From Spirochaetia bacterium (GTDB lineage: Bacteria; Spirochaetota; Spirochaetia; CADAEX01), in NCBI GenBank assembly GCA_017554185.1, contig JAFZIU010000077.1:182-64181 (forward strand): 64,000 nucleotides of DNA. Reading direction: 5' to 3'. A program made the translations under genes and the position numbers. A model generated the notes under the pieces. The model was given only the letters and a program-made list of their open reading frames with translations. It searched no databases and was not told the origin of the DNA. Position 1 is the stretch's first letter; every line of letters begins with the position of its first letter. Positions 20,803 through 53,136 of this stretch are shown here, piece after piece.

Positions 20803-20820
20803 AGTAAGAATATAGCATAA

Positions 20821-20879
20821 TATCGGCAAAATATAAAGCACTTTTTTATTAAAATAACTCTATTTATATATTGCCGATA
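20821..20879 (-). promoter_or_regulatory. 15-bp imperfect inverted repeat (TATCGGCAAAATATA ... TATATATTGCCGATA, 14/15) in the AT-rich region upstream of the Fic gene
   Basis: Seen in sequence. About 29-nt spacer. Lies between the dapA terminator and the Fic start. Confidence 0.3.
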
Positions 20880-38183: not shown

Positions 38184-38216
38184 CCCTGTGTCAGCAATGG
38201 CACAGGGATTTTTATT
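38184..38216. terminator. terminator ccctgtg-N10-cacaggg plus ATTTTTATTT between convergent genes
   Basis: Near-identical stem to the terminator at 13333. Confidence 0.55.
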
Positions 38217-39153
38217 TCATCTGCTTTTCCCAGAATCGCACAGCATCATCAAGCCAGCCCTCGGCTATGGTGCCGGCTCCAAGCCCAAAGCCGTGAGGCA
38301 ATCCATTGTAGGCATGGAACTCGGTAGGTATGCCCAGGGCTTTCATTGCATCAATGCGCTGTTCCATAGTTCTCCAGCTGGCTATGCCGTCACTCTTGCC
38401 GACACAGACAAAAGTCGGCGGGTCGGTGGCCTGGTAATCATCATATCCAGTATACTGCATAACAACAGTGCCAGCCCTTGGAATATCGCCGCCACCGAAG
38501 TACTGTGCCCCGTAGCTGTCCAAAGTTGCCGCCATCCGTGCCCCTGCGCTGCCTCCCCACAGAGAGTAGCAGTTTGTATCCACCTGCAGATCATCGGCAT
38601 GCTCAAAGATAAATGTCAGAGCCCGGGCTAAATCCTGATATGCAGTAAGCCACCCAGGTCTGTAGATAATGGCAAAAGCATTGTAGCCCTTTTTAGAAAG
38701 TTCCAGAGCGTGGGGAAAACTGTCCTGCAGAGCTCCCACATAGACAAACCCGCCGCCTGCATTGCACACAGCAAACTTTGCCCCTGGCTTCCCACGGAAG
38801 AAGAATAATCCGGTATCCCGCTTTGCTGGATCGGCTTTCTTTTCTTCTTCTGTATAGATATTGTAGAATACCTGCTCACCCTTCTGTGCATGCTCTTTAA
38901 AATATTTGACTATTTCTACAGTTTTATTCGGGTCATGCCCATACCAAGTTAGGCGGAGATTTCCAAGTGTAGTGCCGGAATAGTAGTGATCATTGGCTGG
39001 GAAAATCAGCCTTCCCCAGGGCTTGAGATCCGGGTCATTTTTCACATCTTCTATAGCTGTATTTGTGGTAATATTGTTCATTGTAAGCCCCTTTGCATAA
39101 AGTGCTGTGCTAAGACAGAATGCCAGTAGAAGAAGTGCAATATATTTTTTCAT
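38212..39153 (-). CDS. secreted alpha/beta-hydrolase (esterase/lipase)
   Basis: Signal peptide. Nucleophile elbow GGSAG, catalytic His near LPHGFG. Confidence 0.75.
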   Translation of the reverse strand: MKKYIALLLLAFCLSTALYAKGLTMNNITTNTAIEDVKNDPDLKPWGRLIFPANDHYYSGTTLGNLRLTWYGHDPNKTVEIVKYFKEHAQKGEQVFYNIYTEEEKKADPAKRDTGLFFFRGKPGAKFAVCNAGGGFVYVGALQDSFPHALELSKKGYNAFAIIYRPGWLTAYQDLARALTFIFEHADDLQVDTNCYSLWGGSAGARMAATLDSYGAQYFGGGDIPRAGTVVMQYTGYDDYQATDPPTFVCVGKSDGIASWRTMEQRIDAMKALGIPTEFHAYNGLPHGFGLGAGTIAEGWLDDAVRFWEKQMK

Positions 39154-39348: not shown

Positions 39349-40134
39349 ATGGCAAAGACAGTTAAATTAGCAAAAGGAATTATGGAAGTATACGATTTCG
39401 GAACAGTAAAACTCCACGCATACAAGACTAACGATTTTATCACAGACGAATGCTTCCTGGTGGAAAAAAACGGAGCAGCATTCCTTATTGAATCACCATG
39501 TTTCTTTGACAACATTGCAGAGCTTGAAAAATACATCAAGGACGCTGGACTCAAGTATGAAGGAACAGTTATCTCTTACCATGGAGCAGGTGCCAGCTTT
39601 ATGAAAGGTTACCCTGTCTACTCCACCAAGAATGCAGATGACTACAACCACAATGGCGGTGGCGCAGGACTGGTCAACAAATTCACAGGAGCTTTCGGAA
39701 CAGTTTTTGACAACTCTATCTATACCACCACAGATTTCATCAAGGGTGACACCCTCACTCTGGCAGGGGTAGAGATGAAGATCACAATTACAGGCGAGGC
39801 TTTTGACATAGAGATTCCCGAGATCAACGCAGTTTATACCCACATGTTGGGACACGACTGCCACTCTATCGTAGCTGGTGCCGGCCATGCTGACGCTATC
39901 ATTGCACAGCTTGAGGGCTATATCAAAAAAGGAATCAATATGATCCTTACCTCTCACTACACAGTAGAGAACCTGGAAGATGCAAAGACAAAGATTGCAT
40001 ATCTGGAAGATCTTAAGAAAATTGCAGCCGCAAACACTACCCCCGAGGCTTTCAAGGCAGCAGTTAAGGCTAAATACGGAACATATTCCGGAGAAAACTA
40101 TCTGGATATGACCACTGGTTTCTTCTACAAATAA
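39349..40134 (+). CDS. hypothetical protein (261 aa), possibly metallo-hydrolase-like
   Basis: AGGAGG RBS. Sequence THMLGHDCHSIVAGAGH. No confident family assignment. Confidence 0.4.
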   Translation: MAKTVKLAKGIMEVYDFGTVKLHAYKTNDFITDECFLVEKNGAAFLIESPCFFDNIAELEKYIKDAGLKYEGTVISYHGAGASFMKGYPVYSTKNADDYNHNGGGAGLVNKFTGAFGTVFDNSIYTTTDFIKGDTLTLAGVEMKITITGEAFDIEIPEINAVYTHMLGHDCHSIVAGAGHADAIIAQLEGYIKKGINMILTSHYTVENLEDAKTKIAYLEDLKKIAAANTTPEAFKAAVKAKYGTYSGENYLDMTTGFFYK

Positions 40135-40168: not shown

Positions 40169-40588
40169 ATGAGGATTAGTGTTCGTTTTACTGCAGCAGT
40201 CCACACACTGCTGTGCATAGATTACTTCGAAGACTCATTTAAAGTTACATCTGACTTCATTGCCGGAAGCACCGGAGTCAACGCTGTCATCATAAGAAAG
40301 ATACTTCTGCAGTTGCAGAAGGCTAATCTGGTGACCACGGCGGCAGGAACCGGCGGCTCCCACCTGGCAAAGGAGCCCGAAGATATAACGCTGCTTGATA
40401 TTTATAACGCTGTCAAGGATAAGGAGGATGAGATATTCAACTTCCATCCTTCCCCTAATGGCAAATGCCCGGTGGGAAATAACATCCACCGGGTATTGGA
40501 TCCATGTTTGAACACTGCCCAAGGAGCCTTGGAAGCGGAGCTTGGCAAGACCACCCTGGCAGATCTGCTTAAAAAATTACCTAAATAA
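40169..40588 (+). CDS. Rrf2 family transcriptional regulator
   Basis: Rrf2 wHTH (SDFIAGSTGVNAVIIRKILLQLQKANLV). Only a single C-terminal Cys (NGKCPVGNN). Confidence 0.8.
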   Translation: MRISVRFTAAVHTLLCIDYFEDSFKVTSDFIAGSTGVNAVIIRKILLQLQKANLVTTAAGTGGSHLAKEPEDITLLDIYNAVKDKEDEIFNFHPSPNGKCPVGNNIHRVLDPCLNTAQGALEAELGKTTLADLLKKLPK

Positions 40589-40606: not shown

Positions 40607-41608
40607 TTACTTTATCTCAACAAGTCTATAGTTGCGGGAACCGAAGCCGATTTTTGCTGCGTGCTCCAGAGTGTGGATTCCGTTCCTGCTCTCAATGCGC
40701 TCAATCAGACTGCCGGAATCTTTTGCCTTGTAAACCAGATCAACACAAGCCTGGTCAAGGGCAACCGGGTCGGTGGATGCAAGAATTCCGATATCGTGCA
40801 TATCAGGCTCTGCCGGATTTGCATTACAATCACAGTCCACGCTCAGCCGGTTCATAACATTCACACATACAATTCCTTTGCCATCCTGCATATAATCGCA
40901 TACCGACTTTGCAGCTTCTGCCATGCTCTCAAGGAACTCATCCTGAGGACAGCGGGTCCAAGATGTCACACTCCGTCCTGCGCTGTGGATATTAAGCTTA
41001 CCCGATTTTTCGCAGCTCATACCCGATGCAAAACCTATGGAAAGATTCTTGATTGCACCGCCGAAACCGCCCATGGCATGTCCCTTGAAGTGGGAGAGGA
41101 TCAGATAGGTCTGGTAGTCCTTAAAATGGGTGCCCACATAGTTTTCCTTAAGCCGGATACCGCCATTCACAGGAATTGTCATATACCCTTCTTCATCCTG
41201 CAGGTCAAAGCCGTTTGCCACATCCAGAAAGCCGTGCTCCTTTGCAATCCTCATATGGTCTATGTTGTTGCTCCTAGAGCCGCCGTATGCTGTGTTGCAT
41301 TCCACGATTGTAGCGTTAAGTTCATCCTTAACCAGCTTTCCAATTAAGGCTGGACGTAGATAATTTGTTTTCTCGCTTTCGCCGGTGCTCACTTTCACTC
41401 CAGTTTTACCAGTCGCCTTATAGCCAGTGGCATTGTATACTTTTACCAGGGCTTCCGGTGTGATGTCCTTTATAAAATAGACCACCGGAGCAGACTTATC
41501 TTTTGTCTCAAAAGTTTTATTTTTTTCCACCTCTTTTTCTCCCTTTGCAAAAAGTGATACCGAAAGTGCCAGCACAAGTGCAACAACAAAAATTGATTTC
41601 AGTTTCAT
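40607..41608 (-). CDS. secreted hypothetical protein (DUF362-like)
   Basis: Signal peptide. Motifs HFKGHAMGGFGGAIKNLSIG and CDCNANP. Family recalled from memory. Confidence 0.4.
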   Translation of the reverse strand: MKLKSIFVVALVLALSVSLFAKGEKEVEKNKTFETKDKSAPVVYFIKDITPEALVKVYNATGYKATGKTGVKVSTGESEKTNYLRPALIGKLVKDELNATIVECNTAYGGSRSNNIDHMRIAKEHGFLDVANGFDLQDEEGYMTIPVNGGIRLKENYVGTHFKDYQTYLILSHFKGHAMGGFGGAIKNLSIGFASGMSCEKSGKLNIHSAGRSVTSWTRCPQDEFLESMAEAAKSVCDYMQDGKGIVCVNVMNRLSVDCDCNANPAEPDMHDIGILASTDPVALDQACVDLVYKAKDSGSLIERIESRNGIHTLEHAAKIGFGSRNYRLVEIK

Positions 41609-41617
41609 AATAAGCTC

Positions 41618-42478
41618 CTACTCCGGCTTTCCGCTTAAAATAAATTTCACTATATTCGGGTCGTTGTGATCAATAATCTCGCTGTGTCCCAGGTCAAGGG
41701 AATCGATTTTTGCCATGTCACTTTTGGTAAGCTTAAAGTCCCATATGTCAAAGTTCTGCTCCATGCGCTCCTTATGCACGCTCTTCGGCAGGATTGAGAC
41801 GCCTCTCTGGACATTCCACTTAAGAGCAACCTGGGCGGCAGTCTTTCCGTACTTCCTTCCAATATCGCTTAGGACCGGGTGAGTAAAGATACCGTGTTTG
41901 CCCTCTGCAAGAGGCCCCCAGGCCTGAGGTACACAGCCATATTCCTTCATAATTTCGATTGCATTGTACTGAGCAAAGAAAGGATGAAGCTCAATCTGGT
42001 TCACCATAGGTTTTACATCTACCAATGTGCAGAACTCAGTCATCTTCCCAGGATTGAAGTTGGACACTCCTATGGCTCGGATCTTGCCAGCCTTGTAAAG
42101 CTCTGTCATTGCCCTCCATGCACCATATACATCACCATAAGGCTGATGCAGAAGAAGCAGGTCAAGGTACTCCAGACCAAGCCTTCTCAAGCAGCGGTCA
42201 AAGCCTTTCTTGGCCTCTTCGTATCCGTAGTCGCTGGTCCACAGTTTTGTGGTTATAAAAAGATCTTCCCTCTTTACAATTCCTGCTGCCACTGCCTCTT
42301 TTATTGCAGCTCCTACAGCTTCCTCATTCATATATATTGCAGCTGTATCAATCAGCCTGTAACCTGTCTTAATAGCATCTAAAACCGCCTGCTTACACAC
42401 CTGTGGATCCGGCACCTGAAAAACTCCGAAGCCTTCCAGAGGCATCTTAACGCCATTATGCAAAGTACTATATTCCAT
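41618..42478 (-). CDS. aldo/keto reductase
   Basis: AKR catalytic tetrad context (IDTAAIYMNE) and C-terminal cofactor loop. Confidence 0.85.
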   Translation of the reverse strand: MEYSTLHNGVKMPLEGFGVFQVPDPQVCKQAVLDAIKTGYRLIDTAAIYMNEEAVGAAIKEAVAAGIVKREDLFITTKLWTSDYGYEEAKKGFDRCLRRLGLEYLDLLLLHQPYGDVYGAWRAMTELYKAGKIRAIGVSNFNPGKMTEFCTLVDVKPMVNQIELHPFFAQYNAIEIMKEYGCVPQAWGPLAEGKHGIFTHPVLSDIGRKYGKTAAQVALKWNVQRGVSILPKSVHKERMEQNFDIWDFKLTKSDMAKIDSLDLGHSEIIDHNDPNIVKFILSGKPE

Positions 42479-42524
42479 GAATCAATCTCCTTATGATTCA
42501 AGGATAACGGCTGGGTCGTAAAAT

Positions 42525-42569
42525 GTACAATATAATTTTCGCAATGTGCTATATCAGGAACGCATAGCT
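42525..42569. repeat. copy B of the 45-nt repeated element; spans the AKR upstream region and the last 7 codons of the LysR gene
   Basis: See copy A at 39207. Confidence 0.4.
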
Positions 42570-43376
42570 GTTTTTATCTCTTTTATGAAAGACTACATAG
42601 TAAGTTGCAAGTGCTTCCTTGTCAGTAATCGGAATATCTGTGCGGTCACTCTTCCAATCTGTGCGTTTCTGTGTCACATCGGTGGAGAAAGAAGGAAGCT
42701 GGGAGGAATTTACCAGTGTGGAAAAATCATCCCTGCTGTTCTGCAAGAGGAAACGGCTGTTGGGCATCATCTTCTCATGAATTTCATGCCAGAAGCCTAT
42801 CTCGCTCATCAAAAGCATGGTCTCCCCGTCAATGTCCTTGAATTTAAGCGACTTGCGTTTCTCAAATTTATGCCCCTTCGGAGCCGAGAAATAAAGGTGT
42901 TCGGTACCATATTTCCTGCATATATAATTATCATCTACTATGGGCTCGGCCAGAACTGCTATCTGGATCTCTCCCCTGTCCAGCTTTCTGCGGACAGCTT
43001 CTGAACCTTCAACTGATGATGTGATGTTCTTATCAGGATAAATGGAAGAAAGCTGCGGAATCAGGTCCCATAGGGGCGAAGGTGCTACAGAAGCAATATT
43101 GATGCTGTGTTCCATGCGGTATGTATCCTGAAGCACTGTCTTGAAGCTGTTCACGCTCAACTCGATATCCTTTGCATACTGTACAGCCAGCTTTCCATAT
43201 TCGTTCAAGGCAATGGTATTCTTGGTCCTGGTAAAAAGTGGCACCCCCAGTTCCTCCTCCAGATGCTTCATTGCACGGCTCAAGGCAGGCTGTGATGTAT
43301 GCACCTGCTGCGCCGCCTTCGAAATATTGCCGCACTCGGCGAATGCCAGGAATTGGTTGATCTGATATAGTTCCAT
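42549..43376 (-). CDS. LysR family transcriptional regulator
   Basis: N-terminal LysR HTH (MELYQINQFLAFAECGNISKAAQQVHTSQPALSRAMKHLEEELG). ATG at 43376; the track extension is spurious. Confidence 0.8.
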   Translation of the reverse strand: MELYQINQFLAFAECGNISKAAQQVHTSQPALSRAMKHLEEELGVPLFTRTKNTIALNEYGKLAVQYAKDIELSVNSFKTVLQDTYRMEHSINIASVAPSPLWDLIPQLSSIYPDKNITSSVEGSEAVRRKLDRGEIQIAVLAEPIVDDNYICRKYGTEHLYFSAPKGHKFEKRKSLKFKDIDGETMLLMSEIGFWHEIHEKMMPNSRFLLQNSRDDFSTLVNSSQLPSFSTDVTQKRTDWKSDRTDIPITDKEALATYYVVFHKRDKNSYAFLI

Positions 43377-43481
43377 AATATTATTATACCACGTACTATG
43401 CGTTTTGAGTATAGTGGATTGCGAAATATTTATTGTACAAATATGTAAGAATGTTACAGAATAAAGCAAAGGGAGAATGAT

Positions 43482-44099
43482 ATGAACGTATTGATGATAA
43501 ATGGAAGCCCTCATGCAAGCGGCAATACAACCCTTGCCTTGGGAGAAATGGAAAAGATATTTGCACAGGAAGGGATTGAGACAAAAATCCTGAATATTGG
43601 AAACAAAGCTATCCGTGGCTGTATAGCATGCCGGTCATGCGCCAAAACCGGTAAATGTGTCTTTGACGATTGTGTGAACGAGGCAGCACCCCTTTTTGAG
43701 AAGACCGACGGTCTAGTGGTGGCAAGCCCTGTTTATTATGCCTCGGCAAATGCAACCCTTATTGCGTTCCTTGACCGACTGTTCTTCAGCACCCATTTTG
43801 ACAAGACCATGAAGGTAGGTGCCAGCGTGGTATGTGCAAGGCGGGGCGGCTGTACTGCCACATTCGACGAACTGAACAAATATTTTACCATTTGCGGGAT
43901 GCCTGTAACTTCAAGCCAGTACTGGAACTGCGTCCACGGCCGGGAGATAGGCGAGGCTGCCCAGGATTCCGAAGGGCTTCAGACCATGAGGGTTCTTGCC
44001 CGGAATATGTCATTCCTTATAAAAAGCATTGCCCTTGGAAAGGAAAAATATGGCCTGCCCGAGAAAGAGCCATGGCAGCCTACTCACTTTATAAGATGA
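43482..44099 (+). CDS. flavodoxin-like fold FMN reductase / iron-sulfur flavoprotein family
   Basis: MINGSPHASGNT N-terminus and a CxxC pair (CIACRSCAKTGKC). Confidence 0.7.
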   Translation: MNVLMINGSPHASGNTTLALGEMEKIFAQEGIETKILNIGNKAIRGCIACRSCAKTGKCVFDDCVNEAAPLFEKTDGLVVASPVYYASANATLIAFLDRLFFSTHFDKTMKVGASVVCARRGGCTATFDELNKYFTICGMPVTSSQYWNCVHGREIGEAAQDSEGLQTMRVLARNMSFLIKSIALGKEKYGLPEKEPWQPTHFIR

Positions 44100-44113
44100 A
44101 AAGGAGTAAATAG

Positions 44114-45706
44114 ATGAAAAAATTTTTAGCAGTAGTATTATTTGCACTTTTGATTATCAGCACCGGTGCTGCCAAGCCTTTGAACACTATCCAGGCAGGC
44201 CCTGGCATCGCAGTGGTCGAGACACAGTCCGGCACAGTACAGGGCTATGTCCACAATGGGGTATATACCTATCACGGCATTCCTTATGCACAGGCAGAAC
44301 GGTTTGCAGAACCCAAGCCGGTTGCAAAATGGGATGGAATCCGCCCTGCACTGGTATGGGGAGATATGGCTCCTCAGGACACCTCCCGGGAGAATGATAT
44401 GTTCCCAAGCCACTGGAACTGGCCCTACTGGGAACCCCATGTGCTCCCTATGAGCGAAGACTGCCTTAACCTCAATATATGGACCAACGGAATAAACGAC
44501 GGCAAGAAACGGCCTGTCATGGTATGGTTCCACGGCGGTGGCTTTGTAGTGGGCGGCGCTATCTCTGATATGGCATACGATGGCGAGAACCTGGCCCGCA
44601 CAGGAGATGTGGTTGTTGTTTCTGTAACCCACCGGCTGGGCGTACTGGGCTTCCTGGACCTGAGCGCATATGGCGATGAATACAAGCATTCCGGAAACCT
44701 GGGAATTGTAGACCTGGAAGCTTCTCTTAAGTGGATCCGCGACAACATAGCCCAGTTCGGCGGCGATCCAAACAATGTCACTATCTTCGGCCAGTCCGGT
44801 GGCGGAGCCAAGGTTCTCGCCCTTATGGCAACCCCTTCGGCGAAAGGCCTTTTCCATAAAGGTATAGTACAGAGCGCCGCACTTATCGAGGCAAACCCTG
44901 TAAGCCACAAAGTGGCAGAACTGGTTATGAAGAACCTGGGTGTATCAACTGTAGAACAGCTTAAGCAGGTTCCTTTCGACAAGCTTAATGCCGCAGGTTT
45001 CAAAGCAATGGCAAATGCAGGACAGAATATGTGGAGACCGATGGTAGACGGTGATTACATTCCAGAACCACCTGTAGCTGACAAGTTCACCTCTATCTCA
45101 AATGATGTACCTCTTATGATTGGAACAGCCCTTAACGAATGGGTGACACTCCTTGACCTTCCAAAGATGATGACACTCCAGAGCGACAATAAGAACAACT
45201 GGACCGATGAACAGGTAAAGCAGAAGATGAAAGAAAAGTACGGCGACAAGGCAGATGCGGTTGCGGCTGCATTCAAGAAGGCATATCCCAACAAAAAGCC
45301 TGCCGATGCCCTCTTTGTAGAAAATTGGCTGCGCCAGTATATGCTCCAGGCCATGAACACAAAGGCAGACCAGAAGGGCGCCCCTGTATACAGCTATGTA
45401 TTCACCTGGGAAACTCCGGTCATGGGCGGCTTTGCCATGAGCTACCACTGCTCCGAGCTCCCGTTCGTATTCAACAACATAGACCTGACACTTACTGCCA
45501 CCGGCGGTTCCAAGGAAGCACGTAAACTGGCCAGCACCATAAGTTCAGCATGGGTCAACTTTGCCCGCACTGGAAGTCCTGATGCAAAAGGACTGCCAAA
45601 GTGGGAACCTTACACAACAGAAAAAGGCGCTACTATGATCCTGGACAACAAGAGTGCCCTGGGGTACCACCACGATGCAGAGCTTCTTAAGTTGTTGACC
45701 CCATAG
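44114..45706 (+). CDS. type-B carboxylesterase/lipase (secreted)
   Basis: Signal peptide. VWFHGGGF oxyanion hole, GQSGGG nucleophile. Confidence 0.85.
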   Translation: MKKFLAVVLFALLIISTGAAKPLNTIQAGPGIAVVETQSGTVQGYVHNGVYTYHGIPYAQAERFAEPKPVAKWDGIRPALVWGDMAPQDTSRENDMFPSHWNWPYWEPHVLPMSEDCLNLNIWTNGINDGKKRPVMVWFHGGGFVVGGAISDMAYDGENLARTGDVVVVSVTHRLGVLGFLDLSAYGDEYKHSGNLGIVDLEASLKWIRDNIAQFGGDPNNVTIFGQSGGGAKVLALMATPSAKGLFHKGIVQSAALIEANPVSHKVAELVMKNLGVSTVEQLKQVPFDKLNAAGFKAMANAGQNMWRPMVDGDYIPEPPVADKFTSISNDVPLMIGTALNEWVTLLDLPKMMTLQSDNKNNWTDEQVKQKMKEKYGDKADAVAAAFKKAYPNKKPADALFVENWLRQYMLQAMNTKADQKGAPVYSYVFTWETPVMGGFAMSYHCSELPFVFNNIDLTLTATGGSKEARKLASTISSAWVNFARTGSPDAKGLPKWEPYTTEKGATMILDNKSALGYHHDAELLKLLTP

Positions 45707-45723: not shown

Positions 45724-46599
45724 TCAGCACACAGTTCGCAAGGTCTCCAGGAACACTTCTCCTGCCCTTGTGAACTGCTGTCCTCTTCGCCATACCACAT
45801 ACATATTTGTCACAAGTTCAGGCATCAGTGGTTTGAAGCAGAGAGGAGAATCCTTGCTTGTATCAGTCAGCCCATCAAAAGTAAGCAGATACCCTACCCC
45901 GCCCCGGGCAAGAACACTTCCATTATAGGAAAGATCCAGGGTTGCCACCACATTAAGCTTAGATATATCATCCCCGAACCATTTAGGCAGGTCGGCCGCA
46001 AGGGCCTGTCTGGAGGCCATAAGAGGCTTTCCTATCAAATCCTTAGGTTCAATATAATCGCGGTCTGCAAGCTCGGCATCACACCTCATCACCACACCCC
46101 AGCGGTCAACAGAATGAACTGTAATTGAATTATATTTCTCCACATCCACATTCTCTACAATAACTGCAAAATCAAACAACCCTTTGTCCAGCTTCTCCAG
46201 CACCCGCTCGCTGTCTCCGGCATAAAGATGGTAGCGGATTTTCGGATGCTGCTTTTTCAAAAGCAATATTGTCTTAGCCAGGAAAGAGATATTCTTAGAC
46301 TCGGCACAGGCAATGGCAATATCACCCATAACTTCATCTTCCTTAAGCATCTTAAGGTCAAGCACTGTCTTATCTGCCATAGCGATGATATCCTCAGCCC
46401 GCTCCCTCAGAATCTCCCCTGCTGGAGTCAGCCGCATTGCATAATTGGTGCGCTCAAAAAGCTTTTCTCCAAGCTCCCATTCCAGATCCTTGATCTGGCG
46501 GCTTATAGTGGGCTGGGTCACGCTTAGCACCTCTGCTGCCTTGGTGATATTCTCAAGCCTGGCAACCTCTAAAAAATACTTTAATACCCGTAGTTCCAT
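45724..46599 (-). CDS. LysR family transcriptional regulator
   Basis: HTH MELRVLKYFLEVARLENITKAAEVLSVTQPTISRQIKDLE. ATG at 46599. Confidence 0.8.
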   Translation of the reverse strand: MELRVLKYFLEVARLENITKAAEVLSVTQPTISRQIKDLEWELGEKLFERTNYAMRLTPAGEILRERAEDIIAMADKTVLDLKMLKEDEVMGDIAIACAESKNISFLAKTILLLKKQHPKIRYHLYAGDSERVLEKLDKGLFDFAVIVENVDVEKYNSITVHSVDRWGVVMRCDAELADRDYIEPKDLIGKPLMASRQALAADLPKWFGDDISKLNVVATLDLSYNGSVLARGGVGYLLTFDGLTDTSKDSPLCFKPLMPELVTNMYVVWRRGQQFTRAGEVFLETLRTVC

Positions 46600-46712
46600 G
46601 GGATAAATATAGCATATTTCTTTTCCTTTGTCATTCATAAAAAGCATAACTGGCAATATAAACAAAGTATTGGTAATAACTGCTGCACTTTGCTATATTC
46701 AAACCATAGGAG

Positions 46713-47801
46713 ATGACTATGAAACTTACAAAATCAATCTTATTAATTGGAATCATCGCTCTGGCAGCATCTGCACTTAGCATGGCATCCTGCAAAACCA
46801 CAAAGGAGATATCAATGGATACAACATCAGCAAAAATTGAAAAGACTGAACATTACACATTTGAACTTGCAGAAAATGTAACCCGCACAAAGGTGACATT
46901 CAGGAACCATTTCGGAATCGAGCTGGCAGGCGACCTTTATGCACCAAAAGATGCACCACAGACAGGAAACGCAGCCCTTGCAATCAGCGGTCCTTTCGGA
47001 GCAGTCAAGGAGCAGTCATCGGGCTTCTATGCAAACCAGATGGCTTCCCGTGGCTTCATCGCCCTTGCATTTGACCCATCCTTCACCGGCGAATCTGGCG
47101 GAGAACCTCGTTACATGAACAGTCCCGACATCAACACCGAAGACTTTATGGCAGCAGTGGACTACCTTTCAACCAGAGACAACATCGACCCGGAGAAAAT
47201 CGGAATAATCGGTATCTGCGGCTGGGGCGGCATGGCAATTAACACAGCAGCAATTGATACAAGAATCAAAGCAACTGTAGCAAGCACTATGTACGATATG
47301 AGCCGTGTCGTTGCAAAAGGCTACTTTGACAGCGCAGACAGTGAGGATGCTCGGCATGGAATGCGGCAGGCACTTATGGCACAGAGAACCGAAGACTTCA
47401 AGAATGGCACATACAAGCTGGGCGGCGGCGTGGTCGATCCACTTCCTGCAGATGCACCTTACTTTGTAAAAGACTATTATGACTACTACAAGACACCACG
47501 GGGTTATCATGAGCGCTCCCTTAACTCAAACGGCGGTTGGGCAGTTCAGACAGGAACATCGCTTCTGAATGCAAAGCTTATGGCTTATTCTGACGAAATC
47601 CGCAGTGCAGTAATGGTACTCCACGGCGAAAAAGCACATTCCCGCTACTTCGGAGAGGATGCCTTCAAACGGCTTACCGGTGACAACAAGGAATTAGTGA
47701 TCATCCCTGGTGCAAGCCATACCGACCTGTATGACGGTGGCGCAAACAACGTAATTCCATTCGACAGACTTGCAGAGTTCTTTGATAAATATTTGAAATA
47801 A
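46713..47801 (+). CDS. dienelactone-hydrolase-like alpha/beta hydrolase (lipoprotein)
   Basis: Lipobox SMASC. GICGWGG resembles the DLH Cys-nucleophile elbow G-x-C-x-G-G. Confidence 0.6.
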   Translation: MTMKLTKSILLIGIIALAASALSMASCKTTKEISMDTTSAKIEKTEHYTFELAENVTRTKVTFRNHFGIELAGDLYAPKDAPQTGNAALAISGPFGAVKEQSSGFYANQMASRGFIALAFDPSFTGESGGEPRYMNSPDINTEDFMAAVDYLSTRDNIDPEKIGIIGICGWGGMAINTAAIDTRIKATVASTMYDMSRVVAKGYFDSADSEDARHGMRQALMAQRTEDFKNGTYKLGGGVVDPLPADAPYFVKDYYDYYKTPRGYHERSLNSNGGWAVQTGTSLLNAKLMAYSDEIRSAVMVLHGEKAHSRYFGEDAFKRLTGDNKELVIIPGASHTDLYDGGANNVIPFDRLAEFFDKYLK

Positions 47802-47812
47802 AAGAGGATATT

Positions 47813-48328
47813 ATGAGCAAAAAGATAATCGCGCTTATGGCGCTGGTACTGATTACCGGAATCATGGCAACAAATGTTACAGCACAGTCAAAAAAAGTTG
47901 CAAAGGATGGTGCAGCAATGCAGACAAAAGATAAATCTGTGGCAACCCGCGTCATCACAAATGGAACAAAGATTGTAATGCACTTCGGCAGCACAGAGAT
48001 TCCCGGAATCCTTAACGATTCAAAGACAGCTCAGGCCCTTATAAAGAATCTTCCGTATACTGTGCACATGAACCGTTACAGCCACGACTTCTGCGGCATC
48101 GTGCCGGCAAGAGATTTTCCCCATAACGAAAGCGAAGTTCATTATGGATGGCTCAATGGCGATATCGACTATGCAACCGACGGACCGTATTTCACAATCC
48201 TGTTTGAGGACGAAGAAGCTTCCGAGCGGTATGGAAACCAGGTCAACATCGGCGTGATCACCTGCCCTCTTGAAAAAATTTCTTCCCTTAAAGGAAGTTT
48301 TGATGTTAGAATTGAACTTGCCCAATAG
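47813..48328 (+). CDS. secreted cyclophilin-like-fold family protein (paralog 1)
   Basis: Signal peptide. Shares I.ING.T..ATL.DNS.S.A....LP.T..M with 48972..49424. Confidence 0.45.
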   Translation: MSKKIIALMALVLITGIMATNVTAQSKKVAKDGAAMQTKDKSVATRVITNGTKIVMHFGSTEIPGILNDSKTAQALIKNLPYTVHMNRYSHDFCGIVPARDFPHNESEVHYGWLNGDIDYATDGPYFTILFEDEEASERYGNQVNIGVITCPLEKISSLKGSFDVRIELAQ

Positions 48329-48337
48329 GAGGTTCTT

Positions 48338-48967
48338 ATGAAAAAGATCATCATGCTGATTGCTGCAATCGGCCTGATTATAGGCTTAACCAGCCCGGTC
48401 TTTGCACAGAACACGGTAAATGGAAAGAACTTAATCGTCTTCTTCTCCCTTTACGGCAACCAGAAGAGTGTACAGACCGATGCAGATTCAAGCGCAAGCC
48501 GGACCATATATAATGGCAAAGTGGCAGGCAACACAGAAATCATTGCCCAGATGATTCAGGAAGAAGTGGGCGGTGACATGGTGCTGCTTCAGACTGTCAA
48601 TAAATTTTCCAACGAATATAAAACCGTGATTGAAGAGGGAAAACACAATAAAAACACCAAGTTCAAGGAGACAACCAACAAGATTGATCTTAGCGGCTAC
48701 GAGAATATCTTTATCGGATTCCCGGCATGGTGGTACGATATGCCAGACCCACTTTTCGACTTCTTAGACAAACATGACTTAAGCGGTAAAAAGGTATATG
48801 TATTCGCCACAAGCGGCGGCAGCGGACTTATGCGGTCAATCAGCGGAATTCAGAAACTTGAACCGAATGCTGACGTGAACAAAACCGGTTTCCATGTGTT
48901 CTACACCCGCATTGCCGGCGCAAAAGAAGATGTGAAGGCATGGCTCAAGAAAGTCGGAGTAAAGTAA
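48338..48967 (+). CDS. flavodoxin with N-terminal signal peptide
   Basis: Signal peptide MKKIIMLIAAIGLIIGLTSPVFAQ, then a flavodoxin core (LIVFFSLYGN...YVFATSGGSG). Confidence 0.65.
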   Translation: MKKIIMLIAAIGLIIGLTSPVFAQNTVNGKNLIVFFSLYGNQKSVQTDADSSASRTIYNGKVAGNTEIIAQMIQEEVGGDMVLLQTVNKFSNEYKTVIEEGKHNKNTKFKETTNKIDLSGYENIFIGFPAWWYDMPDPLFDFLDKHDLSGKKVYVFATSGGSGLMRSISGIQKLEPNADVNKTGFHVFYTRIAGAKEDVKAWLKKVGVK

Positions 48968-48971
48968 ACCC

Positions 48972-49424
48972 ATGAAAAAACTGGTTGTTTTATCTTTGCT
49001 GCTTTTTATAAGTTCCGCTCTCTTTGCGGCTGAAAATGGAAACTCTGTGGGTAAAAACACTTTGGATGAAAAACTGATTATCAATATCAACGGCCAGACC
49101 GACCTTACTGCCACCCTGTATGACAACTCCTCAAGCAGGGCTATGGTGGAGCTCCTTAAGAAGGGGCCTGTCACCATAGATATGCACGATTTCTCCAATT
49201 TTGAGAAAGTGGGTGAACTTCCGGTGACACTGCCCAGAAACGATACCTACACCGAAACCGATTCAGGCGATCTCATCCTCTACCTGGGCAAGCGTTTTGT
49301 AATCTACTACGACAAGAACAGCTGGAATTTTACTCCGCTGGGAAAAGTTGAAGGTGTTTCAAAGCCAGAACTGAAAAAGATTCTTGGCAGCGGGAATGTG
49401 ACAGCGGTGTTGACACTTAGGTAG
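48972..49424 (+). CDS. secreted cyclophilin-like-fold family protein (paralog 2)
   Basis: Signal peptide. Paralog of 47813..48328. Confidence 0.45.
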   Translation: MKKLVVLSLLLFISSALFAAENGNSVGKNTLDEKLIININGQTDLTATLYDNSSSRAMVELLKKGPVTIDMHDFSNFEKVGELPVTLPRNDTYTETDSGDLILYLGKRFVIYYDKNSWNFTPLGKVEGVSKPELKKILGSGNVTAVLTLR

Positions 49425-49434
49425 GAAACTTGCT

Positions 49435-50505
49435 ATGCGTTCATTTTGTGTTGGAGCCCTTCTGATGACCGCTTTTTTACTCCTCCCCTGCCTGGCCTTT
49501 GCAGACGCAGCTGACTATGCAGCCCGGGCTTCCAACTTCGATGGGAAAATATTCCATAACGAACACGAGTTCATCCTCCTGATGAAAGATATCCCCAAGG
49601 ATGCTCCAACCAGTTTCCTTTCCGACAAAGAGACTGTCCCGGAAAGCAAACTCCCTCTTAAAACCCCTGATTTCACCGGCGACACTATGGGCGGGGAACT
49701 CTTTTTCACCTGGTTTGGCCACTCCACACTGCTTATCCAGATGGGTGGGAAAAATATACTTTTTGACCCGGTTTTCTCAAACCGCTCGTCGCCGGTGCAG
49801 TTTGCAGGCCCCAAGCGGTTCACCCCGCCCCCATGCACCATTGCCGACCTGCTGGAAATCGATATACTGATCATCTCCCACGACCACTACGACCACCTGG
49901 ACAAGAATGCAATTAAGAAAATCGATCCCAAGGTCAAGAAATATGTATGCCCCCTTGGAGTGGAGAAACGGCTTATAAAATTCGGCGTCCCAGGGGATAA
50001 GATCACAAACATGGCCTGGTGGGAGGAAATCAAGCTGGAAAGCATTGATATAGCCTGCACCCCTGCCCGCCATTTTTCTGCCAGATCCTTAACAGACCGC
50101 TTCGAGACCCTGTGGGCCTCCTGGGTGCTGTCCGACGGCAAATATAAAATCTTTGAAAGCGGCGACAGCGGCTGGGATGACCATTTCCAGCGCATCGGAG
50201 CCAAGTACGGCAGCTTTGACCTGGCCTTCATGGAAGCTGGGCAGTACAATATCCGCTGGCCGTCTGTGCACATGAAACCGGAAGAATCCTTCGAAGCAGC
50301 CAAAGCTGTAGGGGCAAAGCTGGTAGTCCCTATCCACTGGGGCACCTTTGTACTATCCAGCCACCCCTGGGACGACAGCGTCCAGCGGATGGTCAAGGCT
50401 GCCGACGGAAGCAACATCAAGATTATAACCCCATACATCGGGGAGACCGTGCCATTCTCCAGGATCCTGGACTACCAGGAACGCTGGTACGAACCGATCC
50501 GTTAA
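49435..50505 (+). CDS. secreted MBL-fold metallo-hydrolase (NAPE-PLD-like / Zn-dependent hydrolase)
   Basis: HxHxDH motif ISHDHYDHLD. Confidence 0.75.
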   Translation: MRSFCVGALLMTAFLLLPCLAFADAADYAARASNFDGKIFHNEHEFILLMKDIPKDAPTSFLSDKETVPESKLPLKTPDFTGDTMGGELFFTWFGHSTLLIQMGGKNILFDPVFSNRSSPVQFAGPKRFTPPPCTIADLLEIDILIISHDHYDHLDKNAIKKIDPKVKKYVCPLGVEKRLIKFGVPGDKITNMAWWEEIKLESIDIACTPARHFSARSLTDRFETLWASWVLSDGKYKIFESGDSGWDDHFQRIGAKYGSFDLAFMEAGQYNIRWPSVHMKPEESFEAAKAVGAKLVVPIHWGTFVLSSHPWDDSVQRMVKAADGSNIKIITPYIGETVPFSRILDYQERWYEPIR

Positions 50506-50554
50506 AAAGTAGTTATATATGGTATAATTCTGCCGATATAATAAATGTACCGGT

Positions 50555-51601
50555 ATGAAAAAAGATCTGTTCTGGACCATTGTAACGCTGATTCTCTCCA
50601 TCCTCACAATGTATATCTGCTTCTTCAAGAGCGGCCTTTCCTTCCAGGAGTTTGTGGAGGCAATCAAGCACGCCAACGTCCTTTGGCTTATCCCCGCAGT
50701 CCTCTGCATGTTCTGTTTCATCTGGTTCGAAGGGCACTCCCTTACCCTGATCTCCCGCTCCATGGGCTATCCGGTTCAGCACAGAAAAGGCTTCTTGTAT
50801 GCATCTGCCGACATCTACTTCTCGTCCATAACTCCATCTGCCACCGGCGGACAGCCTGCCAGCGCCTACTTCATGTATATCGACGGCCTTCCGGCCGAAG
50901 TTGTGACTGCAGCCCTCATCCTTAACCTGACCATGTACACATTGGCCATCATCACACTGGGACTGCTTTCTGTACTCTTCTTCCCAAGCATCTTCTTCCA
51001 GTTCCCTCTCTCCTGCAAGGTGATGATCCTGTTCGGCATTGTCTCCATGGTGCTGCTGACACTCTCATTCATCATCCTGCTTAAGAAAAAGGTTGTACTC
51101 CTCAAGATAAGCAGCATCATCTTCTATCTGCTGCGCAAGCTCCATTTCAAGGCCCTTTCGGCAAAGCTTGAGACAAGGTTCAACGCAGGAATGGAAAAGT
51201 ACAATCTGGTTGTCGAGCAGATTTCCGGCAAGACAGGACTTTTAAGCAGAATCTTCTTCCTTAACCTGCTGCAGCGTACATCTCAGATCCTGGTTCCTGT
51301 ATTTGTCTACTTTGCCCTTCACGGCAATTATTCAAACTGGCTTATGATATTCGTCATCCAGTGCTATGTGGTGGTGGGATCAAACTTCATCCCTATGCCT
51401 GGTGCGGTAGGAATCTCGGAATTCATCATGTTCTTCGGCTACTCAATGCTCATGGACAACAGCTTTGCCATAGAATTAGCAGTTGCAAGCCGTGGAATTT
51501 CATTCTATACTTGTAGTATAGTTTCCCTTATAACAGTAATATTGGGATACATCTTCATCAGGTTCATCAAAAACAGACGGAAAAGCGAGGTCCGGGAATG
51601 A
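50555..51601 (+). CDS. lysylphosphatidylglycerol-synthase-TM-like (flippase-like, UPF0104) membrane protein
   Basis: 348 aa, about 8 TM. 4-nt overlap with pssA. Confidence 0.65.
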   Translation: MKKDLFWTIVTLILSILTMYICFFKSGLSFQEFVEAIKHANVLWLIPAVLCMFCFIWFEGHSLTLISRSMGYPVQHRKGFLYASADIYFSSITPSATGGQPASAYFMYIDGLPAEVVTAALILNLTMYTLAIITLGLLSVLFFPSIFFQFPLSCKVMILFGIVSMVLLTLSFIILLKKKVVLLKISSIIFYLLRKLHFKALSAKLETRFNAGMEKYNLVVEQISGKTGLLSRIFFLNLLQRTSQILVPVFVYFALHGNYSNWLMIFVIQCYVVVGSNFIPMPGAVGISEFIMFFGYSMLMDNSFAIELAVASRGISFYTCSIVSLITVILGYIFIRFIKNRRKSEVRE

Positions 51602-52308
51602 TTGGTTTTTATGACTATACAGTAATCCTCACATATCTTTCCATGATTTCCGCCACATGCGGAATAATCTTCTGCCTGAATAATATAGGGCACCCTTATA
51701 TAGGTATGTTCTTCCTCCTGCTGTGCGGACTGTGTGACGCCTTTGACGGGAAGGTGGCCAGGACCAAGAAAAACAGGACCGAGCGGATGAAGAAGTTCGG
51801 CATCCAGATCGATTCCCTCTCGGACCTGATAGCTTTCGGAGTGCTGCCTGCCTGCATCGGAATTGCCATGATGCGGTGCAGTATATTCTACGAGACCCTG
51901 CCCAACACCATCTTCTTCTTAAAAATCACTGAACGGGCCATGGGGGTCAAGATAGCCTTCACTATAATTGCCACATTCTACACCCTTGCGGCTCTGATCC
52001 GCCTGGCATTCTTCAATGTACTGGAGGAGGAACGGCAGCAGACCGAAGATTCTGCAGGACGTTTCTTCCATGGACTTCCGGTCACCAGTGCAGCCCTGGT
52101 GTTCCCTACCGTACTGCTATGCCATATTGTGTTCAGCATGGACTTTACATTTCTCTATTGTGCCCTTATGGCATTAATGGGAATCCTGTTCATCTCCGAC
52201 ATAAAGGTAAAAAAACCTACCACAAAGGATGTCCTTGTGATGATTGCCTTCGGTGCTGCGGAGGCCATTGTACTGGGCCTTATATTCATCTTCCTGAAAA
52301 GCCGCTGA
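51598..52308 (+). CDS. pssA: CDP-alcohol phosphatidyltransferase, probable CDP-diacylglycerol--serine O-phosphatidyltransferase
   Basis: DG(x2)AR(x8)G(x3)D(x3)D motif (CDAFDGKVARTKKNRTERMKKFGIQIDSLSD). Directly upstream of psd. Confidence 0.7.
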   Translation: MIGFYDYTVILTYLSMISATCGIIFCLNNIGHPYIGMFFLLLCGLCDAFDGKVARTKKNRTERMKKFGIQIDSLSDLIAFGVLPACIGIAMMRCSIFYETLPNTIFFLKITERAMGVKIAFTIIATFYTLAALIRLAFFNVLEEERQQTEDSAGRFFHGLPVTSAALVFPTVLLCHIVFSMDFTFLYCALMALMGILFISDIKVKKPTTKDVLVMIAFGAAEAIVLGLIFIFLKSR

Positions 52309-52323
52309 AACACCGGGACTGCC

Positions 52324-53136
52324 ATGGACGGGCTGAACTTCTTATATAAGACTCCCTTTGGAAGATGTGTCTTAAAGCTTCTTGCATCTCGTCCTGTCTC
52401 AAAGCTGTGCGGCGCATTCCTGGATTCCAGGCTCTCTGCCTTCCTTATCAAAAGCTTTGTCAGAAAAAACAATATAGACTGCAGCGACTACGAGCTTGAC
52501 GGGATAAAAACCTTCAACCAGTTCTTCCGCCGCAGGATCAAAGAGGGGAAACGCCCCTTCGATATAGAGTCACAGCATCTTCCTGCCCCCTGCGACGGTC
52601 TTCTTACCGTCTATCCAATAAATGACGAATGTACAGTGATACCTGTAAAGCAGTCGGCTTACACAATCACCTCGCTCTTGAAAGATAAAGAACTTGCCAC
52701 AAGATATTCGGGGGGATGGTGCCTGGTGTTCCGCCTCTGCGTTGACAACTACCATCGGTATGCCTACCCTGTTTCCGGGGTTAAGGGACCCAACATCTTT
52801 ATTCCGGGAATACTGCATACAGTGCAGCCCATTGCCCTGGAAGAGTTTCCTGTGTTTGCCCAGAACTGCCGCGAATACACCGTAATTGAATCAGACCAGT
52901 TCGGCAAAGTGGTGCAGATGGAAGTAGGTGCCATGCTGGTAGGAAGAATCGTAAACCTGGAGCAGGAGGGAAAGGCCGAGCGCGGCATGGAGAAAGGCTA
53001 TTTTGAATACGGTGGCTCCACAGTCATCCTGCTGATAGAGAAAGATAAGCTTTCAGTCCGCCAGGACATTATTGAAAACACCCAGAACGGAACTGAAACC
53101 CCAGTCAAGATGGGTGAATATGTGGGAACCAGATAA
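52324..53136 (+). CDS. psd: phosphatidylserine decarboxylase proenzyme
   Basis: Self-cleavage GST motif (FEYGGSTV) and conserved His and Asp. Confidence 0.85.
   Translation: MDGLNFLYKTPFGRCVLKLLASRPVSKLCGAFLDSRLSAFLIKSFVRKNNIDCSDYELDGIKTFNQFFRRRIKEGKRPFDIESQHLPAPCDGLLTVYPINDECTVIPVKQSAYTITSLLKDKELATRYSGGWCLVFRLCVDNYHRYAYPVSGVKGPNIFIPGILHTVQPIALEEFPVFAQNCREYTVIESDQFGKVVQMEVGAMLVGRIVNLEQEGKAERGMEKGYFEYGGSTVILLIEKDKLSVRQDIIENTQNGTETPVKMGEYVGTR

Follow-up and report, generated by a model that had tools for sequence, protein, structure and literature searches.

A gene cluster for an exported flavodoxin, two cyclophilin-like proteins and two hydrolases beside a LysR regulator: a possible periplasmic redox/hydrolysis module in a spirochaete

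Covalent extracytoplasmic flavinylation is a recently recognised bacterial route for wiring electrons to the periplasm or the cell surface, and the flavinylated extracytosolic proteins characterised to date act for the most part in electron transfer linked to respiration (PMC8238504). Co-expression and point mutation have demonstrated that ApbE flavinylates extracytosolic Flavodoxin_4 proteins whose strand 1 is followed by an insertion before helix 1, the target being the Ser or Thr of a [S/T]GA[S/T]-like motif, and DUF4405 binds heme b and is a cytochrome that clusters with Flavodoxin_4 and apbE (Huang et al., 2024, mSystems, PMC11334425). Treponema has a periplasmic flavin-trafficking protein, Ftp (formerly ApbE), and both Ftp types can flavinylate periplasmic proteins (PMC4767422). 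A different described system that bears on the present work is found in Escherichia coli, in which the hydrolase gene ycjY is divergent from pgrR and the PgrR regulon comprises ycjY-ymjDC-mpaA (PMC5934670). Here, a five-gene locus at 46713-50505 is compared with these systems. It lies in a stretch of Spirochaetia DNA of 64 kb (assembly GCA_017554185.1, contig JAFZIU010000077.1, positions 182 to 64,181), called the window below, and encodes an exported flavodoxin together with two cyclophilin-like (CypL) proteins and two hydrolases, next to a LysR-family regulator gene. The locus is read as a LysR-controlled cluster for a periplasmic redox/hydrolysis module in a rumen or gut Treponema-like spirochaete, a reading that could as easily prove right as wrong. 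The closest named homologs of its proteins are from Treponema and Spirochaetia metagenome-assembled genomes, and therefore the host is taken to be a diderm having a periplasm.

Family assignments were made by Pfam and NCBIfam searches of the window proteins. Gene 1 (46713-47801) encodes a lipoprotein alpha/beta-hydrolase of the YcjY/PA2218 family with Pfam matches to PETase, S9 and DLH. It is followed by gene 2 (47813-48328) for a CypL protein of subtype A with 171 aa (Cyclophil_like2, PF18050), gene 3 (48338-48967) for an exported Flavodoxin_4 protein with 209 aa (PF12682), gene 4 (48972-49424) for a CypL protein of subtype B with 150 aa (PF18050 again) and gene 5 (49435-50505) for a metallo-beta-lactamase (MBL)-fold hydrolase with 356 aa (Lactamase_B_2), a NAPE-PLD homolog that is exported or membrane-anchored. 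All five open reading frames (ORFs) were found on the plus strand with gaps of 11, 9, 4 and 10 nt, which confirms the tight layout with 4-11 nt gaps described in the original prediction. The divergent regulator proposed there was also borne out: the 291-aa product of 45724-46599 on the minus strand matches HTH_1 (78.9 bits) and LysR_substrate (68.3 bits). The same 291-aa protein occupies the same position in the orthologous locus L007, one of the numbered relatives' loci (L001, L003, L005, L007 and so on) that were fetched for comparison, and the divergent LysR arrangement is found in L005, L007, L171 and L172. Judged from this arrangement, the LysR gene and the operon appear to form a divergently transcribed regulator-operon unit with a 113-nt spacer.

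In all five N-termini a basic n-region precedes a hydrophobic core (Kyte-Doolittle maximum 2.7-3.5 over 10 residues), which is followed by a lipobox or an AXA-type site. Gene 1 has the lipobox M-A-S-C27 (46782-46793), and genes 2-5 have the cleavage sites VTA/Q (47876-47887), VFA/Q, LFA/A and AFA/D, respectively. Leaders were called by sequence rules and by conservation across homologs. They are retained in the orthologous loci L007 and L005, and the Cys-ended leader of gene 1 is retained in L007, L005 and Pseudomonas aeruginosa PA2218. Among diverse CypL relatives 127 of 149 carry leaders, 72 of these with a lipobox-like motif, and 33 of 50 flavodoxin homologs do so by a hydrophobicity test, in which two archaeal homologs with twin-arginine (Tat) leaders were scored leaderless. 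AlphaFold2 modelled gene 4 with low confidence over its first ~30 residues, leader included (block means 45-52), and with a pLDDT of 95-98 over residues 31-150. For gene 1, two in-frame ATGs lie 6 nt apart (46713 and 46719), with AGGAG 7 nt before the second; the L007 ortholog starts at the second, and 46719 is most likely the true start.

It might be objected that these hydrophobic N-termini are an annotation artefact arising from mis-called starts and that the proteins are cytoplasmic. Such a case is conceivable for genes 1, 2 and 5, in which an internal Met (residues 35, 36 and 50, respectively) would keep the catalytic domains intact, but genes 3 and 4 cannot have a mis-called start, because the next in-frame Met (residue 72 in gene 3, residue 58 in gene 4) would delete core strands. 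Good Shine-Dalgarno sites precede the leader-encoding starts of genes 1-3. Orthologs and most of the distant relatives in the family have leaders too, among them lipoboxes in four phyla and fusions to surface anchors. Besides, the NCBIfam model PRK06934 itself contains a leader, as its alignment to gene 3 begins at residue 4, and the leader is modelled as disordered and separate from the compact domain. The artefact is thus regarded as extremely improbable. From leader anatomy and conservation in orthologs we conclude that the export signals of the five products are genuine, and the earlier claim of a signal peptide or lipobox on every product stands.

Gene 3 scores 60.9 bits against PF12682 (cut-off 24) and is homologous to the flavin mononucleotide (FMN)-binding structures 4ICI, 3KLB and 4J8P. 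Its FMN-site loops GFPAWWYDMP (48716-48745) and FATSGGSG (48803-48826) align to 3KLB and 4ICI, and a Flavodoxin_4 domain with an intact FMN pocket is predicted. The Sec leader (MKK, hydrophobic stretch, VFA/Q24) is kept in all close orthologs, and distant homologs have lipoboxes; across the homologs the export signals are of Sec type in spirochaetes, lipoboxes in Firmicute-like and Bacteroidetes-like members, and a twin-arginine signal with lipobox in haloarchaea. Strand 1 (NLIVFFS) of gene 3 is separated from the beginning of helix 1 (GNTE) by an insertion of 26 residues, as compared with 1-2 residues in canonical members. The insertion bears D48-A-D-S-S-A-S54 (48479-48499), and DAVSGAS, DANSGAS, DADSGAS and DTVSSAS are found at the same position in orthologs. 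No other long ORF of the window matches D-x-x-[ST]-[GS]-A-[ST]. Of 50 homologs, 33 were scored as leader-bearing and 17 as leaderless; the motif was present in 23 of the former and in none of the latter (Fisher p = 1.5e-6, with many close relatives among the 23). By analogy with the described class, Ser54 is the predicted site of phosphoester-linked FMN, and it is highly probable that gene 3 belongs to the flavinylated extracytosolic Flavodoxin_4 proteins.

In comparison with that class, represented by proteins of Anaerocolumna xylanovorans and Desulfosporosinus lacus, gene 3 shares PF12682, the export signal, the motif-bearing insertion and an FMN pocket of the non-covalent type, the likeness being judged by architecture. 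The differences lie in origin, motif and company. Gene 3 is spirochaetal, whereas the paper deals mainly with Firmicutes and makes no mention of spirochaetes; its motif reads S-S-A-S rather than S-G-A-S; the window cluster is devoid of apbE, DUF4405 and a flavin transporter; and its partners are CypL proteins and hydrolases, while the word 'cyclophilin' occurs 0 times in PMC11334425. A flavodoxin with a signal peptide had been pointed out as anomalous in the original prediction. Export was upheld, but the anomaly was not, as the protein fits the flavinylated extracytosolic class. The haloarchaeal homologs P0034 and P0035 (the latter from Halomarina pelagica), which have a twin-arginine signal and a lipobox and are without the flavinylation insertion, look like lipid-anchored extracellular flavodoxins exported folded; absence of the insertion fits export in an already folded, FMN-loaded state.

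An exported Flavodoxin_4 gene lies next to or near DUF4405 in L001, L003, L008, L011, L012, L016, L018, L029, L036 and L075. Of these, L011 and L012 come from Treponema parvum and Treponema sp. JC4. As in the published DUF4405-Flavodoxin_4 clusters (PMC11334425), DUF4405 is directly beside exported Flavodoxin_4 in the spirochaete loci L003, L008, L016, L018, L029 and L075, often with CypL. The window differs in having no DUF4405, so that the donor would be encoded elsewhere or be of another kind. Of the spirochaete clusters, L075 (4422-9225) has the fullest set of parts, in the order DUF4405, exported Flavodoxin_4 (DTVTTAS), a second exported Flavodoxin_4, an FGE-sulfatase-like gene, a fusion of CypL types A and B, and an aldo-keto reductase (AKR). 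In the Treponema loci L008 (8001-10725), L016 and L012, a TetR regulator accompanies cytoplasmic and exported parts in one string, namely leaderless Fe-ADH, leaderless Flavodoxin_4, lipoprotein CypL, exported Flavodoxin_4, DUF4405 and ABM, which suggests one pathway across both sides of the membrane. The closest flavodoxin homologs of gene 3, in L001 and L003, are accompanied by an exported FGE-sulfatase-Flavodoxin_4 fusion, by DUF4491 and by a protein of DUF4405 type. The FGE-sulfatase domain is formylglycine-generating-enzyme-like; the two exported fusions (L001 8627-10045; L003 8609-10009) have 466-472 aa and lie directly downstream of the gene 3 homologs.

The cyclophilin-like proteins are the less familiar part of the locus. 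PF18050 scores are 61.2 bits (E 1.2e-16) for gene 2 and 76.6 bits for gene 4, with a cut-off of 22.7, and both have a cyclophilin-like beta-barrel fold. The DUF3830-type identity suggested earlier was not supported, Pfam assigning PF18050 instead. Genes 2 and 4 were also expected to be paralogs. They do share a family, but they are only about 22% identical and are therefore, as judged from their sequences, two distant subtypes A and B rather than recent paralogs. Gene 2 carries the signature HYGWLNGDIDYATDGPYFT at 48140-48196, and the type A family signature is PYTVxM...HYGWLNGDIDYATDGPYFT. The signature of gene 4 is made up of FSNFEKVG (49191-49214), LPRND (49230-49244), GDLILY (49266-49283) and NSWNFT (49317-49334), corresponding to DYGNFEKVG...LPRND...GDLILY...NSWNFT in the type B family, in which E78, D100, Y113, N116 and T121 are invariant in two alignments. 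These invariant polar residues lie on a confidently modelled barrel, as expected of a binding or active site. Type A genes were seen only in the window, L005, L050 (Succiniclasticum), L037 (Eggerthella) and L075 (Spirochaetia), and in all five loci the type A gene is within about 1 kb of a type B gene. L005, which holds the gene 2 ortholog, has one gene of each type, and in L075 the two types are fused in one exported protein (7473-8333). It is probable that the A and B subtypes work as a pair.

Single-sequence and profile searches of the PDB gave no sequence-level match of CypL to any solved structure. Peptidyl-prolyl isomerase cyclophilin identity was rejected, PDB cyclophilins giving no sequence match and similarity, at 10-18% identity, being at the level of the fold only. 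The cyclophilin-like barrels used for comparison were TM1367 (1ZX8), AF2241 (2NNZ) and Arthrobacter 3KOP, together with the N-terminal barrels of the Pictet-Spenglerases McbB (3X27) and KslB (9K0A, 9NS6).

A family survey placed these proteins in a wider context. PF18050 comprises 2,947 representative clusters at E <= 1e-3 (counted at 50% identity), most of them exported, and the family is abundant in anaerobes of the rumen and gut. The survey covered 149 CypL representatives and 85 loci from at least six phyla, with neighbours taken within 6.5 kb. Flavodoxin_4 is fused to CypL in 20 of the 149 representatives, and roughly one in three of the top 120 profile hits is such a fusion. A Flavodoxin_4 domain lies within the 6.5 kb in 38 of the 85 loci, and a fusion is present in 19 loci. 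The recurrence of the CypL and flavodoxin pairing in anaerobes, which the original prediction had asserted, is thus confirmed by both neighbourhood and many single-polypeptide fusions. CypL is also fused to other redox modules, AKR and DUF362, and three AKR-Flavodoxin_4-CypL triple fusions were found. Surface-anchor partners include SLH, dockerin, Big_2, Cu_amine_oxidN1, LRR_5 and Por_Secre_tail. In the survey loci, leaders are carried by 73 of 86 CypL proteins and 39 of 52 flavodoxins. The neighbours counted over the 85 loci were LysR (26), Fe-ADH (20), CMD/cupin (17), a 360-aa hydrolase of gene 1 type (16), TetR (15), DUF3737 (13), MatE (13), hexapeptide acetyltransferase (12), ABM (12), DUF362 (10) and DUF4405 (8), and an AKR resembling the window AKR was detected by tblastn in 19 surveyed loci.

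The AKRs in these loci differ in a cofactor motif. Those with a leader or a CypL fusion carry IPGSSNPxH (L007 8459-9343; L003 7044-7946; P0328, P0373, P0327, P0389, P0423, P0374, P0401), and three leaderless stand-alone AKRs (window, L075, L171) keep [IL]PK[ST]. The leaderless triple fusion P0401, which is also IPGSS, is an exception to the link with export. The lysine of the AKR motif contacts the 2'-phosphate of NADPH, and NADPH is not expected extracytoplasmically. The IPGSS AKRs may use the cofactor differently.

Gene 1 matches the PDB entries 2HDW (P. aeruginosa PA2218; E 5e-104) and 5XB6 (E. coli YcjY; E 8e-44), with 33% identity to YcjY over the full length. Its nucleophile elbow G-I-C169-G-W-G-G maps to 47211-47231 and a conserved S-H336-T-D-L-Y-D to 47715-47735, for which the family pattern is SH(T/M)DLYD. 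GICGWGG occurs in 16 of 16 surveyed family members, and YcjY has GICAGAG. Since the Cys elbow is found in all family members, the gene 1 family is assigned a cysteine nucleophile on this sequence pattern, as in true dienelactone hydrolases. The dienelactone-hydrolase-like label given to gene 1 is therefore half right: the elbow is of that type, but the DLH match (PF01738, 27.9 bits, cut-off 21) covers residues 141-190 only. Gene 1 shares with YcjY and PA2218 the G-x-C-x-G elbow and H-x-DLYD, and E. coli ycjY is likewise divergent from a LysR gene. Like gene 1, PA2218 begins with a lipobox-like leader, whereas YcjY has none; the regulators of the two loci are not orthologous, and PA2218 and YcjY are themselves uncharacterised. 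In the survey, the gene 1-type hydrolase is the most regular neighbour of type B CypL genes, being directly upstream of CypL in 12 listed loci (Spirochaetota, Bacteroidota, Bacillota) and one gene apart in two more.

Gene 5 is an uncertain member of the redox module. It matches Lactamase_B_2 with 131.8 bits and NAPE-PLD (PDB 4QN9) with E 5e-49 over residues 63-312, and it has the metal motif H149-D-H-Y-D-H154 at 49879-49896. On this basis it is assigned by homology to the NAPE-PLD-type MBL-fold hydrolases. It shares with human NAPE-PLD the HxHxDH motif and ~250 aligned residues and adjoins genes of phosphatidylserine and phosphatidylethanolamine synthesis, but it is bacterial and leader-bearing, with no conserved neighbourhood in 52 homologous loci. 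Among the 89 fetched loci, a gene 5 homolog was found only in the ortholog L007, and the 52 loci of MBL homologs revealed no strongly conserved neighbour. A core role of the MBL gene in the module was therefore ruled out as a general rule. The MBL fold named in the original prediction stands, with the added homology to NAPE-PLD; the gene is not a recurrent member of the module. The human gut locus L093 has the order MerR, FMN_red, CypL, MBL, and in L095 CypL and FMN_red are near an MBL gene.

Downstream of gene 5, a string of co-directional phospholipid genes extends to 53136. It consists of an LPG_synthase_TM flippase-like gene (50555-51601, plus strand; Pfam in the window and in L007), a CDP-alcohol phosphatidyltransferase gene (51598-52308, plus strand) and a phosphatidylserine decarboxylase gene (52324-53136, plus strand), the latter two identified by Pfam in L007. 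Intergenic distances are 49, -4 and 15 nt, and the products are 81%, 100% and 97% identical, in this order, to their L007 counterparts. No convincing terminator was seen between 50505 and 50555. As the co-directional string runs past 50505, the transcription unit may comprise eight genes and end at 53136. The NAPE-PLD-like gene upstream of the flippase-like, phosphatidyltransferase and decarboxylase genes (49435-53136 as a whole) keeps this order in L007, and gene 5, an occasional add-on to the module, may serve these phospholipid genes instead. Of the five-gene operon originally proposed, the tight linkage is supported; a fixed five-gene unit is not, since the ortholog L007 differs.

Taking these parts together, a working scheme can be outlined, in which we place about as much trust as doubt. 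LysR would sense a small molecule and switch the operon on, as the gene arrangement suggests. The five products would be exported via Sec-type leaders, gene 1 becoming lipid-anchored at Cys27, as read from its lipobox, and the others remaining periplasmic or membrane-tethered. The flavodoxin would cross the membrane unfolded and cofactor-free, and Ftp/ApbE would attach FMN by a phosphoester to Ser54, by homology to the proven class; the flavin would be held in the ordinary flavodoxin FMN pocket and kept from diffusing off. A membrane carrier encoded elsewhere would reduce the flavodoxin, a role that DUF4405 cytochrome b would play in related spirochaete clusters. In the weakest step, suggested by fusions and co-occurrence, the pair of A and B CypL proteins would bind or convert a substrate using flavodoxin electrons. 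Finally, the Cys hydrolase, for which fold and nucleophile are recognised, would hydrolyse an ester, lactone or amide linkage of that substrate or of its precursor. The likely role would be to process or detoxify a carbonyl, quinone or lactone-type compound from plants or the host before this enters the cell. The pathway for ester or lactone xenobiotics envisaged earlier is one possibility within this range, and the neighbours Fe-ADH, AKR, FMN_red, ABM, CMD/cupin, acetyltransferase and MatE point at least equally to carbonyl/quinone-type compounds. On a broader and only tentative view, rather doubtful at present, PF18050 proteins would be the substrate-binding or catalytic subunits of a large undescribed, mostly extracytoplasmic oxidoreductase family in anaerobes, here as an A and B pair. 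Electrons would be drawn from paired or fused Flavodoxin_4, from the lysine-less (IPGSS) AKR or from DUF362, and in spirochaetes they would pass from DUF4405 cytochrome b to flavinylated flavodoxin, the CypL pair and the substrate.

Several observations weigh against a periplasmic redox module built around a flavinylated flavodoxin. In the S-S-A-S variant of gene 3, Ser replaces the central Gly of the canonical S-G-A-S. No ApbE/Ftp was detected in the 64-kb window by a six-frame motif scan and by Pfam on ten ORFs of 305-400 aa and the ORFs between 33.6 and 43.5 kb, about half of the ORFs being unscanned, and no ApbE family recurs near CypL genes in the 85 related loci. Neither DUF4405 nor another obvious electron donor is encoded in the window; a tblastn search of the window for DUF4405, the FGE-sulfatase fusion, DUF4491 and an energy-coupling factor (ECF) component found only DUF362. 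The flavinylation motif is present in 0 of 20 Flavodoxin_4-CypL fusions and in 7 of 52 survey flavodoxins, and this rarity in CypL-linked flavodoxins means that the partnership does not in itself entail flavinylation. Cytoplasmic versions exist (the leaderless triple fusion P0401; the L037 type A gene), and cytoplasmic Fe-ADH and AKR genes often adjoin CypL genes. Given the motif-less fusions and the leaderless triple fusion, the CypL-flavodoxin partnership is, as far as such comparisons tell, older and broader than flavinylation or export. AlphaFold2 modelling of a natural Flavodoxin_4-CypL fusion gave a pTM of 0.47 with no confident domain interface, and the resemblance of CypL to cyclophilin-like structures, at 12-16% identity, is confined to the fold and gives no chemistry. 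Moreover, the cluster is not fixed: L007, with the same flanks as the window, has the order LysR, hydrolase, type B CypL, exported AKR, MBL, so that an exported AKR takes the place of the flavodoxin and the type A gene. L005 reads LysR, hydrolase, type B, type A, short hydrolase, flavodoxin, ECF S-component; the S-component was considered as a flavin transporter and rejected, as it matches only the CD3073 family.

Fluidity of this kind among close relatives (L007 as against the window; the flavodoxins of L001 and L003 in wholly different clusters) would also be expected if the products were independent exported stress or detoxification proteins that merely share a LysR switch. There would then be no direct electron transfer from flavodoxin to CypL: the flavodoxin, flavinylated or not, would be a general periplasmic carrier, CypL would be binding or chaperone-like, and the hydrolases would have unrelated substrates. 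The mixed set of neighbours (Fe-ADH, CMD, ABM, acetyltransferase, MatE, DUF3737) and the natural fusion modelled without a confident interface are consistent with such an arrangement. It is nevertheless considered fairly unlikely, for CypL has repeatedly and independently been fused to Flavodoxin_4, AKR and DUF362, in triple fusions as well, which would hardly be expected without direct coupling, and the adjacencies alpha/beta-hydrolase-then-CypL and Fe-ADH-then-CypL are conserved across phyla.

Alternatively, the system may be a respiratory or extracellular electron outlet for redox balance or energy conservation rather than detoxification, in which electrons would pass from a DUF4405-type cytochrome b to the flavodoxin and on to an external acceptor such as quinones, humics or an organic acceptor bound by CypL. 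Flavinylated extracytosolic proteins being mostly respiration-linked (PMC8238504) speaks for this view, as does DUF4405, which adjoins Flavodoxin_4 in many related loci and is grouped with apbE in PMC11334425. We hold it to be improbable here: no DUF4405 or other membrane redox gene is beside the window operon, and regulation by LysR, TetR, MerR or AraC together with efflux pumps, acetyltransferases and hydrolases resembles an inducible compound response. A role in recycling of cell-wall peptides is less probable by far. It would follow the analogy with E. coli ycjY, which is divergent from pgrR and co-transcribed with the murein tripeptide amidase gene mpaA in the PgrR regulon ycjY-ymjDC-mpaA (PMC5934670), and gene 1, with its 33% full-length identity to YcjY and the same Cys elbow, invites the comparison. 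The window LysR, though, is no PgrR ortholog, orthology being ruled out by a 29% identity that is confined to the helix-turn-helix and reflects generic similarity; no amidase, epimerase or murein-peptide transporter occurs in the cluster or the 85 surveyed loci; and YcjY has no demonstrated recycling role, while its counterpart here has redox proteins as partners. An inducible periplasmic module in which flavodoxin and CypL act together is thus the reading kept here, at the strength stated above.

The divergent control region (46600-46712, 113 nt) contains a promoter-like site on each strand, namely TTGGTA-18-TATATT (46670-46699, plus strand, with an extended TG) and ATGACA-17-TATATT (46634-46606, minus strand), both being consensus matches only. 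A weak 6-nt inverted repeat, CAAAGT-N18-ACTTTG, lies at 46663-46692. A LysR T-N11-A box was looked for in 46600-46712, and just this weak repeat was seen. The region is 92% identical to that of L007, a relative too close for footprinting.

Immediately upstream of the locus is a second LysR unit (40607-45706). It contains an exported DUF362 gene (40607-41608, minus strand), a leaderless AKR gene (41618-42478, minus strand), a second LysR gene (42549 to about 43370, minus strand), an FMN_red gene with the motif C-x2-C-x2-C-x5-C (43482-44099, plus strand) and a gene for an exported type-B carboxylesterase of 530 aa (44114-45706, plus strand), assigned by Pfam and, for the DUF362 and carboxylesterase products, by the leader. 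DUF362, AKR and FMN_red are recurrent CypL neighbours, and DUF362 and AKR are also CypL fusion partners elsewhere. Just upstream of the DUF362 gene there are genes for an exported esterase (BD-FAE/Abhydrolase_3; 38212-39153, minus strand), a 261-aa protein with no family match (39349-40134) and an Rrf2 regulator (40169-40588). Farther away in the window, the genes for a patatin-like phospholipase (18866-19963, minus strand) and a Fic/DOC-domain protein (19924-20841, minus strand) share about 40 nt.

With respect to what is already known, the flavodoxin is of a described class, and the LysR unit and the hydrolase folds are ordinary. No literature was found on PF18050 or on the CypL-flavodoxin pairing. 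We could not find described the systematic partnership of two-subtype PF18050 proteins with exported flavodoxin, AKR and DUF362 modules, or its link to spirochaete flavinylation. The locus would extend the flavinylated Flavodoxin_4 class to spirochaetes and tie this class to the very large PF18050 family. If the CypL proteins are not substrate partners, it would represent an ordinary flavodoxin of a known class within a variable stress-response cluster. Concrete targets are provided by the flavodoxin, the two small barrels and the cysteine hydrolase, which share a LysR switch. If the CypL proteins are substrate-handling partners, the locus would point to unexplored redox reactions outside the cytoplasm of gut microbes, probably with small molecules from the diet or the host as substrates, and if they are terminal enzymes, to a new terminal-enzyme class for flavinylation-based extracytosolic electron transfer.

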